A stretch of 42,138 nt of DNA from a virus (lineage: Duplodnaviria; Heunggongvirae; Uroviricota; Caudoviricetes): IMG/VR virus record IMGVR_UViG_2526164691_000033, positions 1-42,138 of that record, one strand, 5' to 3'. Positions within the stretch are counted from its first letter, which is position 1; the number at the start of each line of letters is the position of its first letter. The position numbers and the translations under genes are program-made. Under the pieces are notes generated by a model that searched no databases, was not told where the DNA came from, and worked only from the letters and a program-made list of their open reading frames with translations. Shown piece by piece: positions 3,191 through 36,703 of the stretch.

Positions 3191-3205
3191 TTACCCAAAG
3201 GGTGA
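3191..3205. promoter_or_regulatory. imperfect copy of TTACC-N5-GGTAA operator motif (TTACCCAAAGGGTGA)
   Basis: One half-site mismatch; lies in the divergent holin/gtrA intergenic region. Confidence 0.3.
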
Positions 3206-3234
3206 TATATTTGTTTTTATTTTTTCTGGAAAAA

Positions 3235-3597
3235 GTGCTTCATCTGTTCACTAAATACATGTCAATCGGAGTGTTAAACACGCTCATACACTGGGTTGTG
3301 TTTGCTTTCTGTATTTACGTAATACATACAAATCAAGTACTTGCTAACTTTGCTGGTTTTGTCATAGCTGTATCGTTCAGTTTTTACGCTAACGCGAAAT
3401 TTACGTTCAATGCCTCTACTACTACGCTGAAATACATGCTTTACGTTGGATTCATAGGCACTATGAGCGCAGTTGTTGGCTGGGCTGCTGACATGTGCGG
3501 TCTGCCACCATTTGTTACTCTCGTCATCTTCTCCGCCATAAGCCTGGTGTGCGGTTTCGTCTATTCAAAGTTCATTGTCTTTAGGGATGCGAAATGA
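3235..3597 (+). CDS. gtrA: GtrA, bactoprenol-linked glucose flippase (O-antigen conversion)
   Basis: Translation [23 protein letters not shown]...[12 protein letters not shown] closely resembles enterobacterial/phage GtrA (YfdG) as recalled; probable GTG start at 3235. Confidence 0.75.
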
Positions 3598-3701
3598 AGA
3601 TATCTCTTGTAGTTCCTGTCTTCAATGAAGAAGAAGCGATACCAATTTTTTATAAAACGGTACGTGAATTCGAAGAATTGAAGTCATATAAAGTAATTTA
3701 A
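3594..3701 (+). pseudogene. gtrB: gtrB 5' fragment (bactoprenol glucosyltransferase truncated after about 32 native codons)
   Basis: ATGA overlap with gtrA stop; [32 protein letters not shown] matches the GtrB/YfdH N-terminus as recalled, then KVI-stop; full GtrB is about 300 aa. Confidence 0.75.
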
Positions 3702-3705
3702 TGTA

Positions 3706-3732
3706 AGAGAGGGATATTTCCCTCTCTTTTTT
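3706..3732 (+). terminator. rho-independent terminator between gtrB stub and tailspike gene
   Basis: 8-bp stem AGAGAGGG/CCCTCTCT, 6-nt loop, then TTTTT; sits between the two convergent stop codons. Confidence 0.5.
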
Positions 3733-3733
3733 A

Positions 3734-6355
3734 TTAATAATTCCCCTCAGAAAGGAAACTGCAAACACCGGGACCACCTGGAATATTGCATGTCCATGCC
3801 TTTGGTTGTCCTGAAGCAGGTGCGCTATTGATAACGCGTTCGCCTATATCCCAGAAACCGGATGTAGGTACTGACGAAAGATAAAATGTTGTTTTTTCAA
3901 CTTGTAACGCATTTGATGGCATTCCATATACACAAAGAGACGGTGAGTTTATGAGTACATTTCCTGAACCATAATTTCTTATACCAACATTTATAGCTGT
4001 ATCAGTTTCGTATATATACACACCACAACTAACATAGCTCCATTTCCCATTACCAGCTAAAGGTGCTGTAGAGTCTGTTTGTCCTGCACCATTAATTATA
4101 AACATAAGTTTTGACGCTGATCCCTGGTCATTGACCCACGCACCAAACCATACAAATTTCCCTTTTAGTTCTGGTGATTTGTTGAGGTCTATCGTTCGTC
4201 CCCAAACTCTATCTCCTGTCGTAACTAAGAATGAATAATTACCAGCATAGATGTTTTGAGTTTTTATCAATGTTCCTGTAGTTCCAGATGCAGCAGTCCA
4301 GAGCAACATATTTCGATCAAGATAGTTAGCAGTTAACTCTCTGTTCGCAATATCTATTAAATGCGCAGTGTCAGGGTTTTGTGTCGCCGGGTCATAACTA
4401 CCAACGTATCCGATGGAGTTCACTGTGTTGTTGGCAAGATATAGCCTGTCAGTAACTTTGGACGAAAGATTATTGTGGTACATTGCTAATAAATTATTCA
4501 CTTTCGATGCGTCTAATAACTGATTATTTTCAATCGTCAGGTTTTTCGCATAGTTCGTGAAAATAAATCCGTCTTGGTTAGGTAGCGCGCTGGCGTAGCC
4601 AATCGCGGTCTGCTGATTCCCGCGAATAGATACGGTATCATTAATTTTTGAAAGGTCAGGAATTAATGTAAAATTGTTCGCGATAAGGTGGATATCCGCA
4701 CGTACTGTAATAGACTCAGGTACACTATACGGGTAACCAATCTCACCGTTGCGTTCCCAATAGTTAGCATCAAGGTTAAGGCCTTTAACCCCGTAAGCCA
4801 AAAGTCCGTAGAACTTATTTTGCTCTATATCGTTGCCATTAACTCTGACGCTCATACCGCCCTCAGCGTAAGCTGGCGTAAGTAAAACTCCACCGGCTCC
4901 GTTACCATAGATACGGTTGTTGATTATATTAATATTATTGCAGTGGCCACCAACATTAATACCGTTACCGGTGTTTTGAAACAATCGGCACCCAATGATG
5001 TCAATGGAGTAACCGTTAACTAATATTGCGTTGTTATTAGTATTAACCACGTCAATATTTTCTATTTTAATGTGGTTGGCTTCAGTAAGACTGATGCCGT
5101 TAGCTGCGTAGCCATTTCCGTCAAGACCAAAGTCCCTGAACTCGCAGAACGTAATTACTCCATCTTGTTGCGTGATTATCGGTGCCGCTGTACCCGTAGA
5201 GAAAATTCTGGACTGATATGCGCCAGCACCTCGTATCATGGTGACAGTATTCTTAATCGTAATACCAGGGTCAACAATGAACACCCCCTCTGGTATAACA
5301 ATCTCAGTTGGCAACGTAGCATCATCAATAGCCTTCTGAAACGCCGCTTTGTTCTGAGAACCGGTGTTGCCAACTTTAAATCCGTAGTCTGAAAGTGTCA
5401 CCAAATCTACAGAAAGTTTTTCATATACCGACATCGAGACGGCATCATTAAATTTAGGGGTATATGTAACTATTGAGGAGCCTTTATCTGTCTCTTGACT
5501 AATCAGGTCGCTCCGCAACGATGCATCCCCTACAGATACCCAGGCACCAAGGGAAACCCCACCTGTTGATTCAGGGGTTGAATTCTCAGGAACATCTTTT
5601 GGTAAAGATCCATCCCAACGGTAGTACTCGCCATTTCCATCAGGACGTTTCCAGTGAAGTGCCTGAAATCTAGTTGTTATTGAAGCACCATCCTGAAACG
5701 AATCAATAAGGGAATATCCCCATAACCCACTACTTTCAGGATCAAGAAGAAGCGGTGATCCAGAATTATCAAAACTCAGTGTTTTATTCTTTCTCCCATC
5801 CGCATCAGGTAACTCATTTATAAACGATTCAGGTACTCTCAAGCTTCTGCTTAGGCTGGCACCAGAAAGAATATCAACATAATCTTTCGTTGCTGCGTCT
5901 TTCGGCCTGGATGGGGCACGAAGATTACGAATATAGTTGTCCATTGCGTCGTAATAGTTAGCAGCAAATGACGGCTTACGTAGCGCCAGGCTAAACCAAC
6001 TACGAACCTGCTGAATCAACATTGTCAACTTATCAAGCGCATCCTCATGCACCTCAGCAAAGAACTTACCCTGGTTACGGAGATCCGTTTCCTGCGTAAC
6101 CGGCAATTCACGTGATATGGAAATCTGGTAACCATTAGCAAGAGCTGTTGCCAGTATTACATTACCACCTACATACCCACCTGCGCCGGTTACTGTGTAG
6201 TCAGTATCTAGCGTCAGAACAGTGATGTTATCGTTCAGGTCTACAACCTGGACTACCAGATCAGACTTCTTAAAAATCCTGAAGGTATAAGGGAATGTCG
6301 TTGTAACACCGTTACCGGTGTATTCGTTGTGGTCAACTTCGGTTGAGACCGTCAT
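3734..6355 (-). CDS. tailspike protein with right-handed beta-helix (pectate-lyase-like) domain
   Basis: 873 aa; conserved tail-fibre/tailspike-type N-terminus (MTVSTEVDHNEYTGNGVTTTFPYTF); central repeats rich in N/G/I typical of parallel beta-helix depolymerases (NNNAILVNGYSIDIIGCRLFQNTGNGINVGGHCNNINIINNRIYGNGAGG). Confidence 0.75.
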   Translation of the reverse strand: MTVSTEVDHNEYTGNGVTTTFPYTFRIFKKSDLVVQVVDLNDNITVLTLDTDYTVTGAGGYVGGNVILATALANGYQISISRELPVTQETDLRNQGKFFAEVHEDALDKLTMLIQQVRSWFSLALRKPSFAANYYDAMDNYIRNLRAPSRPKDAATKDYVDILSGASLSRSLRVPESFINELPDADGRKNKTLSFDNSGSPLLLDPESSGLWGYSLIDSFQDGASITTRFQALHWKRPDGNGEYYRWDGSLPKDVPENSTPESTGGVSLGAWVSVGDASLRSDLISQETDKGSSIVTYTPKFNDAVSMSVYEKLSVDLVTLSDYGFKVGNTGSQNKAAFQKAIDDATLPTEIVIPEGVFIVDPGITIKNTVTMIRGAGAYQSRIFSTGTAAPIITQQDGVITFCEFRDFGLDGNGYAANGISLTEANHIKIENIDVVNTNNNAILVNGYSIDIIGCRLFQNTGNGINVGGHCNNINIINNRIYGNGAGGVLLTPAYAEGGMSVRVNGNDIEQNKFYGLLAYGVKGLNLDANYWERNGEIGYPYSVPESITVRADIHLIANNFTLIPDLSKINDTVSIRGNQQTAIGYASALPNQDGFIFTNYAKNLTIENNQLLDASKVNNLLAMYHNNLSSKVTDRLYLANNTVNSIGYVGSYDPATQNPDTAHLIDIANRELTANYLDRNMLLWTAASGTTGTLIKTQNIYAGNYSFLVTTGDRVWGRTIDLNKSPELKGKFVWFGAWVNDQGSASKLMFIINGAGQTDSTAPLAGNGKWSYVSCGVYIYETDTAINVGIRNYGSGNVLINSPSLCVYGMPSNALQVEKTTFYLSSVPTSGFWDIGERVINSAPASGQPKAWTCNIPGGPGVCSFLSEGNY

Positions 6356-35897: not shown

Positions 35898-35929
35898 TTA
35901 CCTATGGGGTGCATTTACCTGTTGGGTAA
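35898..35929. promoter_or_regulatory. OR-like operator pair
   Basis: TTACCTATGGGGTGC (imperfect) and TTACCTGTTGGGTAA (perfect), 3 bp apart, between the divergent cro-like and repressor genes. Confidence 0.55.
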
Positions 35930-35984
35930 TATTGCTTTAAATTGAATCATCTACTGATTCATATATGAGGCGATTTTCCAGAAA

Positions 35985-36569
35985 ATGAAAAGTATCCAGG
36001 ACGTCCGCAGGCAAAATCTCAACGACTTGATCGACCGTGAATTCAATGGTGTTCAGACGCGGATGGCAGAAAAACTTGGAACTCAGGCAAATCTGGTAAA
36101 CCGCTGGGCTCTTGGCAAGAAGGTTATCGGCGACCAGGTTGCGCGAAAAATTGAAGCTGCCGCCAATAAACCCCGTAACTGGCTTGATATCGATCGCTCG
36201 CTTTCTCAGGAAGGTTTTCAGCCTGTCGGCCCAAGCGACATTGGTCAGCTAGCGGCTCACAACCTGGAACGCTGGATGAGCGAAAGCCGCGACCTTTCAA
36301 CACAGGGAAAACTTCACCGCGCATCCGGCGTAGCCCAGGTGACAATCAGCCGCCTGTTAAACAATGAGGTCAGCGTTTCCATTTCCACCCTGGAGAATGT
36401 TGCATCCGCATTCGGGCGTCATGGCTATGAATTACTGATTCACCCGCATGACCCTGCGACCATCAACTATGACCGCTCGCGCTACGCATTGTTACCCGAA
36501 ACCGAGAAAGCAAAGATCGAAAGTTACATTGAATTTGTCATCAACCAGAACGAAAAAAACAAACAATAA
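35985..36569 (+). CDS. prophage repressor with two XRE-type HTH domains and no S24 peptidase domain
   Basis: HTH 1 about residues 20-60 (QTRMAEKLGTQANLVNRWALGKKVIGDQVARKIEAA); HTH 2 about residues 110-150 (ASGVAQVTISRLLNNEVSVSISTLENVASAFG); no Ala-Gly / Ser-Lys autocleavage signature seen. Confidence 0.65.
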   Translation: MKSIQDVRRQNLNDLIDREFNGVQTRMAEKLGTQANLVNRWALGKKVIGDQVARKIEAAANKPRNWLDIDRSLSQEGFQPVGPSDIGQLAAHNLERWMSESRDLSTQGKLHRASGVAQVTISRLLNNEVSVSISTLENVASAFGRHGYELLIHPHDPATINYDRSRYALLPETEKAKIESYIEFVINQNEKNKQ

Positions 36570-36590
36570 AATCATATTTTTCAGTAAGTA

Positions 36591-36615
36591 AGCCGCCTTC
36601 TGGCGGCTTTTTTTA
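36591..36615 (+). terminator. rho-independent terminator after repressor gene
   Basis: AGCCGCC-TTCT-GGCGGCT followed by TTTTTTT. Confidence 0.6.
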
Positions 36616-36627
36616 TTGCCTATACGA

Positions 36628-36703
36628 TTACCTGACGGGTAATTTTTTAACTCATATCTATTGACATCAAACCAAATACGCATAATCATTACCTCAAAGG
36701 TAA
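36628..36703. promoter_or_regulatory. OL-like operator pair with promoter
   Basis: TTACCTGACGGGTAA (36628-36642) and TTACCTCAAAGGTAA (36689-36703); TTGACA at 36661-36666 between them. Confidence 0.55.

Follow-up and report, generated by a model that had tools for sequence, protein, structure and literature searches.

Dispersed TTACC-N5-GGTAA palindromes as probable repressor operators of a phiV10/epsilon15-type prophage

Why would a prophage carry the same 15-bp palindrome not only around its repressor gene but also before its packaging, portal, tailspike, lysis and accessory genes? This arrangement is found in a stretch of 42,138 nucleotides (positions 1 to 42,138 of IMG/VR virus record IMGVR_UViG_2526164691_000033; hereafter "the window"), in which copies of TTACC-N5-GGTAA stand between genes. 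Judged from its sequence, the window is a phiV10/epsilon15-type Uetakevirus (epsilon15-like podovirus) prophage in E. coli, adjoining yfgH and yfgI. In the immunity region it shares 97% identity with phages PAS61, phiv142-3 and phiV10, and its structural genes match this group too. We propose that the palindromes are very probably the operators of the prophage's own repressor, Rep, which would belong to the non-cleavable, tetrameric family of the SPC32H repressor.

Distribution and conservation of the palindrome

The window was scanned for TTACC-N5-GGTAA and compared with 100 dinucleotide-preserving shuffles. Nine perfect copies were found (starting at 6840, 7901, 25403, 28563, 33505, 33567, 35915, 36628 and 36689), against a shuffle mean of 0.00, together with five one-mismatch copies (3191, 6460, 28545, 35530 and 35867). 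At one mismatch or fewer, the window thus holds 14 sites; the shuffles averaged 0.70 and never exceeded 3. When the copy at 35898, with two mismatches (TTACCTATGGGGTGC), is added, 15 sites occupy ten control regions spread over 33.5 kb; five flank the Rep gene, and the other ten lie in eight further control regions. No other palindrome of the 5-N5-5 form is enriched in the window (nine copies, with a runner-up of two). Similarly, 63.1 kb of E. coli chromosome, taken as a host control, contained no perfect and two one-mismatch copies.

All sites are non-coding, given a terS start at 28542, directly after the second site of its pair, as annotated in epsilon15, Tyrion and TL-2011b, and a gtrA start at 3235, as in relatives and as called by PGAP. 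An earlier, sequence-only reading of the window had described a dispersed, intergenic set of about 12 copies. Its eight perfect copies are all correct, its intergenic placement holds once these two starts are adopted, and the counts above bear out a frequency above shuffled and host DNA. Its list was incomplete, as the perfect copy at 28563 and the one-mismatch copies at 28545 and 35867 were missed, and it took 35898 for a one-mismatch copy. The overlooked pair before terS comprises the sites that bear most directly on late-gene control.

The palindrome is also the sole enriched 5-N5-5 palindrome in each of six genomes, namely the window, phiV10, epsilon15, SPC32H, Tyrion (Enterobacter) and BUCT711 (Klebsiella), with 8–11 perfect copies per genome. 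Twelve site classes of the window recur in at least two of the three genomes epsilon15, Tyrion and BUCT711, and across the four diverged genomes the pairwise identity at the orthologous classes is 96% in the half-sites, compared with 53% in the spacer and 61% in the flanks. Furthermore, weak sites stay weak across the relatives (GTACC or ATACC before gp40; GGTGA or TCACC at the outer OR site), and the weak left half-site of 35530 (GTACC or ATACC) is itself kept in Tyrion and BUCT711.

Part of this set had been marked before. In the epsilon15 RefSeq record (NC_004775.2), seven "protein_bind" features bear the label repressor/lysogeny. Single features precede terS, gp3/portal and the RuvC gene, another lies between gp19 and the tailspike gene, and the remaining three are found downstream of the repressor gene. 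Each of the seven has the sequence (A)TTACC-N5-GGTAAT, and the counterparts of 28563, 25403 and 6460 are annotated there at 12–27, 2931–2947 and 19895–19911, respectively. That record does not mark the sites of the OR cluster, the one in the lysis region or the proximal one at nin, though all fit the motif; the phiV10 record has none of these protein_bind features, and we found no open paper describing these operators. The dispersed operator set is real, functional-looking and ordinary for the genus, and it has been known in outline since the epsilon15 record marked sites years ago.

The repressor and the TTACC half-site

Which protein reads the palindrome? Rep is 100% identical to the phiV10 and ZX5 repressors and ~42% identical overall to the epsilon15/SPC32H repressor, and its phmmer match to the SPC32H structure (PDB 5D50) spans residues 1–190 (E = 4e-42). 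Besides this clear match, the Pfam and NCBIfam searches returned generic helix-turn-helix (HTH) matches only: HTH_3 at residues 106–147, in the middle part of the protein, and a weak, sub-threshold YdaS-like match for the N-terminal domain. No S24 peptidase (Peptidase_S24) domain was matched, and a search with the Rep alignment returned only 100%-identical copies.

According to passages of two papers (PMC9638917; PMC9986798), the SPC32H repressor consists of an N-terminal DNA-binding, a middle dimerisation and a C-terminal tetramerisation domain, acts as a tetramer on palindromic sites while its dimeric form binds DNA weakly, and is freed from DNA by the antirepressor Ant. A passage of the second, which cites the SPC32H work, also describes the repression mechanism of this repressor family as not extensively characterised (PMC9986798). 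The earlier notion of two DNA-binding HTH domains in Rep is probably wrong because HTH_3 lies in the middle portion of Rep; in its SPC32H homologue, DNA is bound by the N-terminal domain, with the middle dimerisation domain following (PMC9986798). In phage ZX5, overexpression of the repressor that is identical to Rep lowered the holin and endolysin mRNAs by 99.97–99.99% (PMC9782041).

Rep is only 43–44% identical between divergent clades of the genus, in which the helix N36-L-V-N-R-W41 is invariant. This invariant NLVNRW helix agrees with the invariant half-site, and we count the agreement as support for Rep as the reader. The same half-sites recur farther away: the cI of Pseudomonas phage PseuP_224, a lambda-like siphovirus with a Q-type antiterminator, has an N-terminal domain 39% identical to that of Rep, and the phage carries TTACC-N4-GGTAA four times (one with a mismatch), solely beside its cI gene.

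The association was also approached from the motif. Viral contigs were scanned, blind to protein content, for two copies of TTACC-N4-GGTAA 8–38 bp apart, and their open reading frames were then profiled for the Rep N-terminal domain (E < 1e-3). Among the 80 loci obtained, 35 encode a matching reading frame; in all 35 the frame is no more than 261 bp from a site, and mostly no more than 30 bp, although the site neighbourhoods make up about one-tenth of the DNA. Their recognition-helix region reads [AP]-[NS]-Y-[IV]-[SA]-R. Together with PseuP_224, this reverse test ties the N-terminal domain family of Rep to the TTACC half-site and shows that Uetakevirus stands apart by the dispersal rather than by the motif. 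The phage collection included no heteroimmune relatives for a covariation test, as every Uetakevirus in it has the Rep family and the TTACC motif. As a separate observation, cI-type repressors that share the Rep N-terminal domain occur with TTACC-N4-GGTAA operators in many unrelated viral contigs (PseuP_224, L011, 10906–11820; L092–L171).

Table 1. Operators, predicted promoter elements and genes discussed in the text (window coordinates)
Feature	Position	Strand	Basis or remarks
Operator, 1 mismatch, between lysis cassette (starts 3098, minus) and gtrA (starts 3235, plus)	3191..3205		divergent region
Operator, 1 mismatch, between tailspike (3734-6355, minus) and small ant gene	6460..6474		divergent region; motif scan
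Operator flanked by two tandem predicted promoters (isrK-C4-Bro-N ant unit)	6840..6854		motif scan
Operator directly after -10-like TAATAT	7901..7915		43 bp before cargo operon
Operator between leftward gp3/portal late operon and rightward tRNA-Arg/Gp49-family unit	25403..25417		divergent region; motif scan
Second operator of terS pair, 1 mismatch	28545..28559		ends 2 nt before terS ATG (28542)
First operator of terS pair, perfect	28563..28577		after terminator 28614-28597 and extended -10-like TGgTACTAT
Proximal operator of nin-like operon	33505..33519		overlaps ribosome-binding region of DUF1064 gene (start 33501)
Distal operator of nin-like operon promoter	33567..33581		62 bp from 33505; 62 bp in 7/7 genomes
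Operator, 1 mismatch, between cro terminator (35578-35559) and gp40-homologue/replication genes	35530..35544		motif scan
OR-like operator, 1 mismatch, over predicted leftward promoter of cro-like gene	35867..35881		motif scan; orthologous in all relatives
Middle OR operator, degenerate, 2 mismatches	35898..35912		17 bp from 35915
OR-like operator, perfect	35915..35929		56 bp upstream of Rep start codon
OL-like distal operator	36628..36642		after terminator 36590-36609; 61 bp from proximal operator (relatives 62-63 bp)
OL-like proximal operator	36689..36703		first T = last base of predicted -10
Predicted rightward early promoter TTGACA-17-AATCAT	36661..36689	+	10/12 consensus matches; between both OL operators
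Late -10-like hexamer TATGAT (or TATAAT in relatives) before lysis genes	3126-3131	-	65 nt from operator start, 5/5 genomes
Late -10-like hexamer TAGAAT before tailspike	6395-6400	-	starts 65 nt from operator start, 7/7 genomes
Late -10-like hexamer TTAAAT before gp3	25338-25343	-	starts 65 nt from operator start, 7/7 genomes
LexA (SOS) box TACTGTATATTTATACAGTT, perfect	6512..6531		ends 20 bp before small ant ATG
Small antirepressor Ant, 85 aa	6551..6808	+	87% identical to annotated SPC32H Ant, E=3e-56
IsrK-like small RNA	6891-6967	+	Rfam RF01394, 67.2 bits, above gathering score
C4 antisense RNA	6992-7075	+	Rfam RF01695, 66 bits, above gathering score; just before Bro-N gene
Bro-N antirepressor-family protein	7124..7834	+	Pfam Bro-N E=1e-19; PHROG 130 "anti-repressor Ant" E=2e-57; PGAP start
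Cargo operon, two genes: PHROG 5933 protein and YafO-family toxin (PGAP name)	7958-8783		PHROG, PGAP
Cro-like 76-aa regulator, first gene of leftward early operon	35600..35830	-	homologue of phiV10p41, epsilon15 gp39
Rep, 194-aa prophage repressor	35985..36569	+	phmmer E=4e-42 to PDB 5D50 (SPC32H repressor)

Operator geometry and competing explanations

How might Rep act from these sites? In our proposal, two copies of its N-terminal HTH domain would read TTACC and GGTAA one helical turn apart, and the terminators would cut the genome into about ten transcription units, nearly every one of which would begin with one or two operators. Five operators share one base with a -10-like hexamer, which ends on the operator's first T. 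Two of the five came from a promoter scan (TTGACA-17-AATCAT at 36661–36689 and TTGAAA-17-TATATT at 6812–6840, each with 10 of 12 consensus matches), and three were read by hand (TTTAAT before 33505, TGgTACTAT before 28563 and TAATAT before 7901). Promoter-like matches gather near the sites, since 7 of 18 fall within 35 bp of one, a zone making up 6.7% of the scanned DNA (p = 1e-4). The GGTAAT half-site itself was considered as a -10 element and rejected, as it lacks the A at position 2.

The rightward early and the nin-like promoters each have a second, upstream operator, with a start-to-start distance of 61–63 bp in all seven genomes compared, or about six helical turns. It is plausible that, at the rightward early, nin-like, terS, isrK-C4-ant and cargo units, Rep bound at the -10 end would block RNA polymerase and that, at the two early promoters, a single Rep tetramer could grip the promoter from both sides by way of the operator 61–63 bp upstream.

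Between Rep and the cro-like gene, the OR region comprises three sites with spacings of 17 and 30–31 bp. A predicted minus-strand promoter (TTGTTA-17-TATTAT, 35884–35856) covers the 35867 operator. At 17 bp from the counterpart of 35915, the second operator is perfect in epsilon15, SPC32H and BUCT711. The OR-like cluster (35867, 35898 and 35915) and the OL-like pair (36628 and 36689) flank the repressor gene, and further sites precede the nin-like array, the cargo operon and the Bro-N ant operon, as had been read from the sequence earlier. We also noted a palindrome, CTGATATTTATTTCAG, at 35840–35855, between the predicted leftward early -10 and the cro-like start codon, which is kept in Tyrion and not in epsilon15 and could be a weak LexA-like box.

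The terS pair has a spacing of 18 bp that recurs in phiV10, epsilon15, Tyrion and TL-2011b. The phiV10 record and PGAP place the terS start upstream of the predicted terminator and of both operators (window 27949–28623; L001, 41–715); the ATG at 28542, as in epsilon15, Tyrion and TL-2011b, is the more likely start. The operator at 25403 had been assigned to the tRNA unit. It does precede that unit, with a TTGACA/TTGACC hexamer 16 nt away on the tRNA side (counted by eye, the offset being checked in the window and epsilon15), and the tRNA-Arg gene (25740–25816) points away from the late operon. On the other hand, the site is also present in relatives whose records annotate no tRNA (phiV10 and epsilon15), and the region is common with the portal/late operon; it probably serves both directions.

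Before gp3, the tailspike gene and the lysis genes, the late hexamers keep their 65-nt offset from the operator start in 19 of 19 cases, with the intervening 50 nt diverged. Given this offset and an assumed transcription start ~7 nt past the hexamer, the operator centre would lie near -70. This is one of several points that weigh against our proposal, because -70 is not the classical position for occlusion but is typical of an activator. Likewise, the 3191 operator sits in the spacer of a predicted gtrA promoter (TTAACG-18-TATATT, 3182–3211), where it would shut off a conversion gene that lysogens are expected to express; the position of this operator is kept in phages carrying other conversion genes. 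The promoter calls are consensus matches whose overall number is not above that in shuffles, and the epsilon15 protein_bind features are annotations, probably predictions. In addition, the mRNA drop in ZX5 could be indirect, and the reverse test links the motif to the immunity module, in which a co-inherited Cro could share the sites.

Could a second protein read the same palindrome? The late offset would be explained either by a tetramer bridging to a weak proximal site, for which TGGTT-N5-GGTAA elements over the -10 at gp3 and the tailspike gene are hand-read candidates, or by another protein using the operator. In the latter case, a lytic-phase regulator (the 76-aa cro-like protein or another) would also bind the palindrome, repressing at the early -10 elements and activating the late operons from ~70 bp upstream, and would thereby act as an early-to-late switch. 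Cro proteins commonly share operators with the repressor. The late promoters, on hand inspection, have good -10-like hexamers and poor -35 regions; their offset is fixed despite the diverged DNA between, and the gene annotations include no lambda-type Q or N homologue. Against this, any similarity between the cro-like protein (PHROG 35 "transcriptional repressor", E = 5.6e-13) and the DNA-binding domain of Rep is not significant (2.6 bits), and the protein was rejected as a paralogue of this domain. Furthermore, a conserved CAYATRTGGTT between the operator and the late -10 may be the activator site instead. We regard a second reader as possible but rather doubtful. An equally speculative extension, which we put forward only tentatively, is that one palindrome sets the whole programme: the Rep tetramer would clamp the early pairs, a second, lytic-phase protein would activate the late operons, and newly acquired cassettes (the toxin module and the Bro-N ant) would join by gaining a single operator. 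If true, this would be a flat, cascade-free regulatory design, distinct from lambda and P1.

Two observations touch on the late regions without belonging to the operator set. In the lysis, tailspike, portal, nin and gp40 control regions, a second recurrent element, AACCA-N4-TGGTT (CAYATRTGGTT on the transcribed strand; 3148–3161, 6420–6433, 25351–25364, 33525–33532 and 35511–35524), lies at a distance of 19–52 bp from the TTACC operators and is kept in relatives. Its enrichment is modest (8 versus 1.6 at one mismatch or fewer), it was set apart from the regulon, and it could be a late-promoter element or the site of a second regulator. The gp49-type "transcriptional regulator" (28664–29005) had no Pfam, NCBIfam or PDB match and was on this ground rejected as a known late activator.

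Rep might also work without controlling promoters, by halting read-through into silent operons from sites just past terminators, like the "stoperators" of mycobacteriophage L5. Predicted terminators do directly precede four site groups (28577–28545, 35544–35530, 36628 and 33581), and L5-type phages have 20–30 such sites (PMC6550527). However, the stoperators of L5 lack symmetry, follow the direction of transcription and for the most part have no association with promoters (PMC6550527), whereas the sites described here are symmetric and exclusively intergenic, and several coincide with strong promoter-like matches; such a roadblock is unlikely to be their main role. Most improbable of all is that the palindromes are not protein sites but RNA hairpins, packaging or recombination signals, or an accident of composition. 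A small mRNA hairpin is conceivable because terS and the DUF1064 gene have the palindrome across their ribosome-binding regions, but a 5-bp stem with a 5-nt loop would be weak, the orientation is independent of the direction of transcription, and the spacer varies freely while the half-sites are fixed. The shuffles (0.00), this half-site footprint and the reverse test, in which the same half-sites accompany homologous repressor domains in unrelated phages, disfavour any explanation without a protein. Binding by Rep itself, acting mainly at promoters, is the reading that we prefer.

Antirepressor loci, accessory genes and significance

If Rep holds the prophage silent, how would it be removed without cleavage? 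The small ant gene has a perfect LexA box directly upstream (CTG-N10-CAG match at 6514; box CTGTATATTTATACAG), with the 6460 operator a further 40 bp upstream in the region common with the tailspike gene. Kim and Ryu reportedly described in 2013 an SOS-controlled Ant switch in SPC32H, with LexA controlling ant. The perfect box agrees with such a switch and suggests that the small Ant is an SOS-triggered inducer rather than a gene simply silenced by Rep. DNA damage would take LexA off the box, Ant would then strip Rep from DNA, and all units would be released together. The idea that ant is silent through the repressor fits the Bro-N ant operon, which is preceded by the 6840 operator, and would not by itself account for the small ant with its own LexA box.

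The predicted promoters around 6840 are TTGAAA-17-TATATT (6812–6840; 10/12) and TTTACA-17-CATAGT (6856–6884). Orthologues of this site are found in phiV10 and Tyrion, and TL-2011b has a site at 34385 in a matching upstream flank. An 11-bp inverted repeat (AAGAGGAGTGC ... GCACTCCTCTT; 6822–6875) encloses the operator just past the small ant stop codon. The tandem IsrK-like and C4 RNAs before the Bro-N gene form a P1 immI-like module within an epsilon15-like podovirus. The cargo unit behind 7901 resembles a toxin-antitoxin pair, yet stands behind a phage-repressor operator. In TL-2011b, the YafO cassette is preceded by a perfect copy of that phage's own, whose spacer differs, and two more sites lie close by; BUCT711 has a site before a different cassette.

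Several other observations concern the prophage and its relatives. A conserved variant, TTACC-N5-GGTAT, lies ~57 bp upstream of the integrase gene in six relatives (L001 26870, L002 26882, L003 26960, L004 28568, L005 12620 and L006 135); in this prophage, it would fall just past the right end of the window. Within the replication-initiator gene, at 34813–34935, about six iteron-like repeats in tandem (CCCGTTTTTGGGAT / CCGTTTTCGGGAAC) are probably the phage origin. The 2.3-kb segment 6780–9100 is 100% identical in three complete E. coli genomes. In E. coli F2_407_2_2 (L007, 18190–19418), an IS3 element lies inside the tailspike gene of an otherwise matching prophage, and that copy is probably defective because the gene is interrupted.

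What do these results add? Prophages of the phiV10 type are common, the 2.3-kb segment being matched in 510 of 5,426 complete E. coli genomes, and their records leave the repressor operators unmarked. We provide the complete phiV10-type site list, the half-site footprint, the 61–63 bp and 65-nt geometries, the operators on accessory cassettes and the link between the Rep domain family and the TTACC half-site. If Rep sits at every unit, including packaging, portal, tailspike, lysis and the YafO-type toxin, the accessory genes would be lytic-phase genes rather than "morons" expressed in the lysogen, and induction through a single small antirepressor under LexA control would free the entire genome in one step. 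The fixed spacings of 62 bp and 65 nt provide concrete, testable constructs.

Relation to known systems

The closest system is that of epsilon15 and SPC32H (NC_004775.2; PDB 5D50, 5D4Z). It shares ATTACC-N5-GGTAAT before terS, gp3/portal and the nin-like genes, between ant and the tailspike gene and downstream of the repressor gene, as well as a homologous repressor, a small Ant (87% identical in SPC32H) and a LexA box before ant. It differs in that Rep is only ~42% identical and that this prophage has additional operators at an isrK-C4-Bro-N ant unit and a YafO-toxin cassette, which epsilon15 and SPC32H lack. Like lambda CI, Rep has three operators between its gene and cro and more beyond the repressor gene; the two-cluster layout of lambda does not apply here, as ten sites lie away from the Rep gene. 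PseuP_224 shares the half-sites, with a 4-bp spacer, and differs in having two clusters beside cI only.

A resemblance to the C1 regulon of P1 had been suggested in the sequence-only reading. The primary repressor of P1 also controls the immI promoter, and P1 late promoters depend on the activator Lpa, whereas this prophage has operators at the late operons themselves. Common to both are many dispersed operators under one repressor and a C4 antisense RNA before an antirepressor gene, here beside 6840, which strengthens the likeness. It holds as an analogy of function, not as homology. P1 has 22 operators with an asymmetric 17-bp consensus, ATTGCTCTAATAAATTT (PMC8546580), in place of symmetric 15-bp palindromes. 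Rep showed no sign of relatedness to P1 C1 among its Pfam, NCBIfam and PDB matches, with no direct comparison made to the P1 C1 sequence.

In L5 and the other Cluster A phages, dozens of repressor sites likewise keep the whole prophage silent (PMC6550527), but these are 13-mers without symmetry that run with transcription and mostly stand apart from promoters (PMC6550527), unlike the symmetric, intergenic sites at predicted promoters described here. According to PMC9986798, Rco of pLS20 shares with the SPC32H repressor a C-terminal tetramerisation fold, "TetDloop", and loops DNA between operators 75 bp apart. This loop is comparable in size to the 61–63 bp pairs, and looping by Rep is our proposal only; the Rco sites, moreover, are direct repeats rather than palindromes. 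The prophage belongs to the epsilon15/SPC32H system, and P1, L5 and Rco are analogies to it, not homologues.

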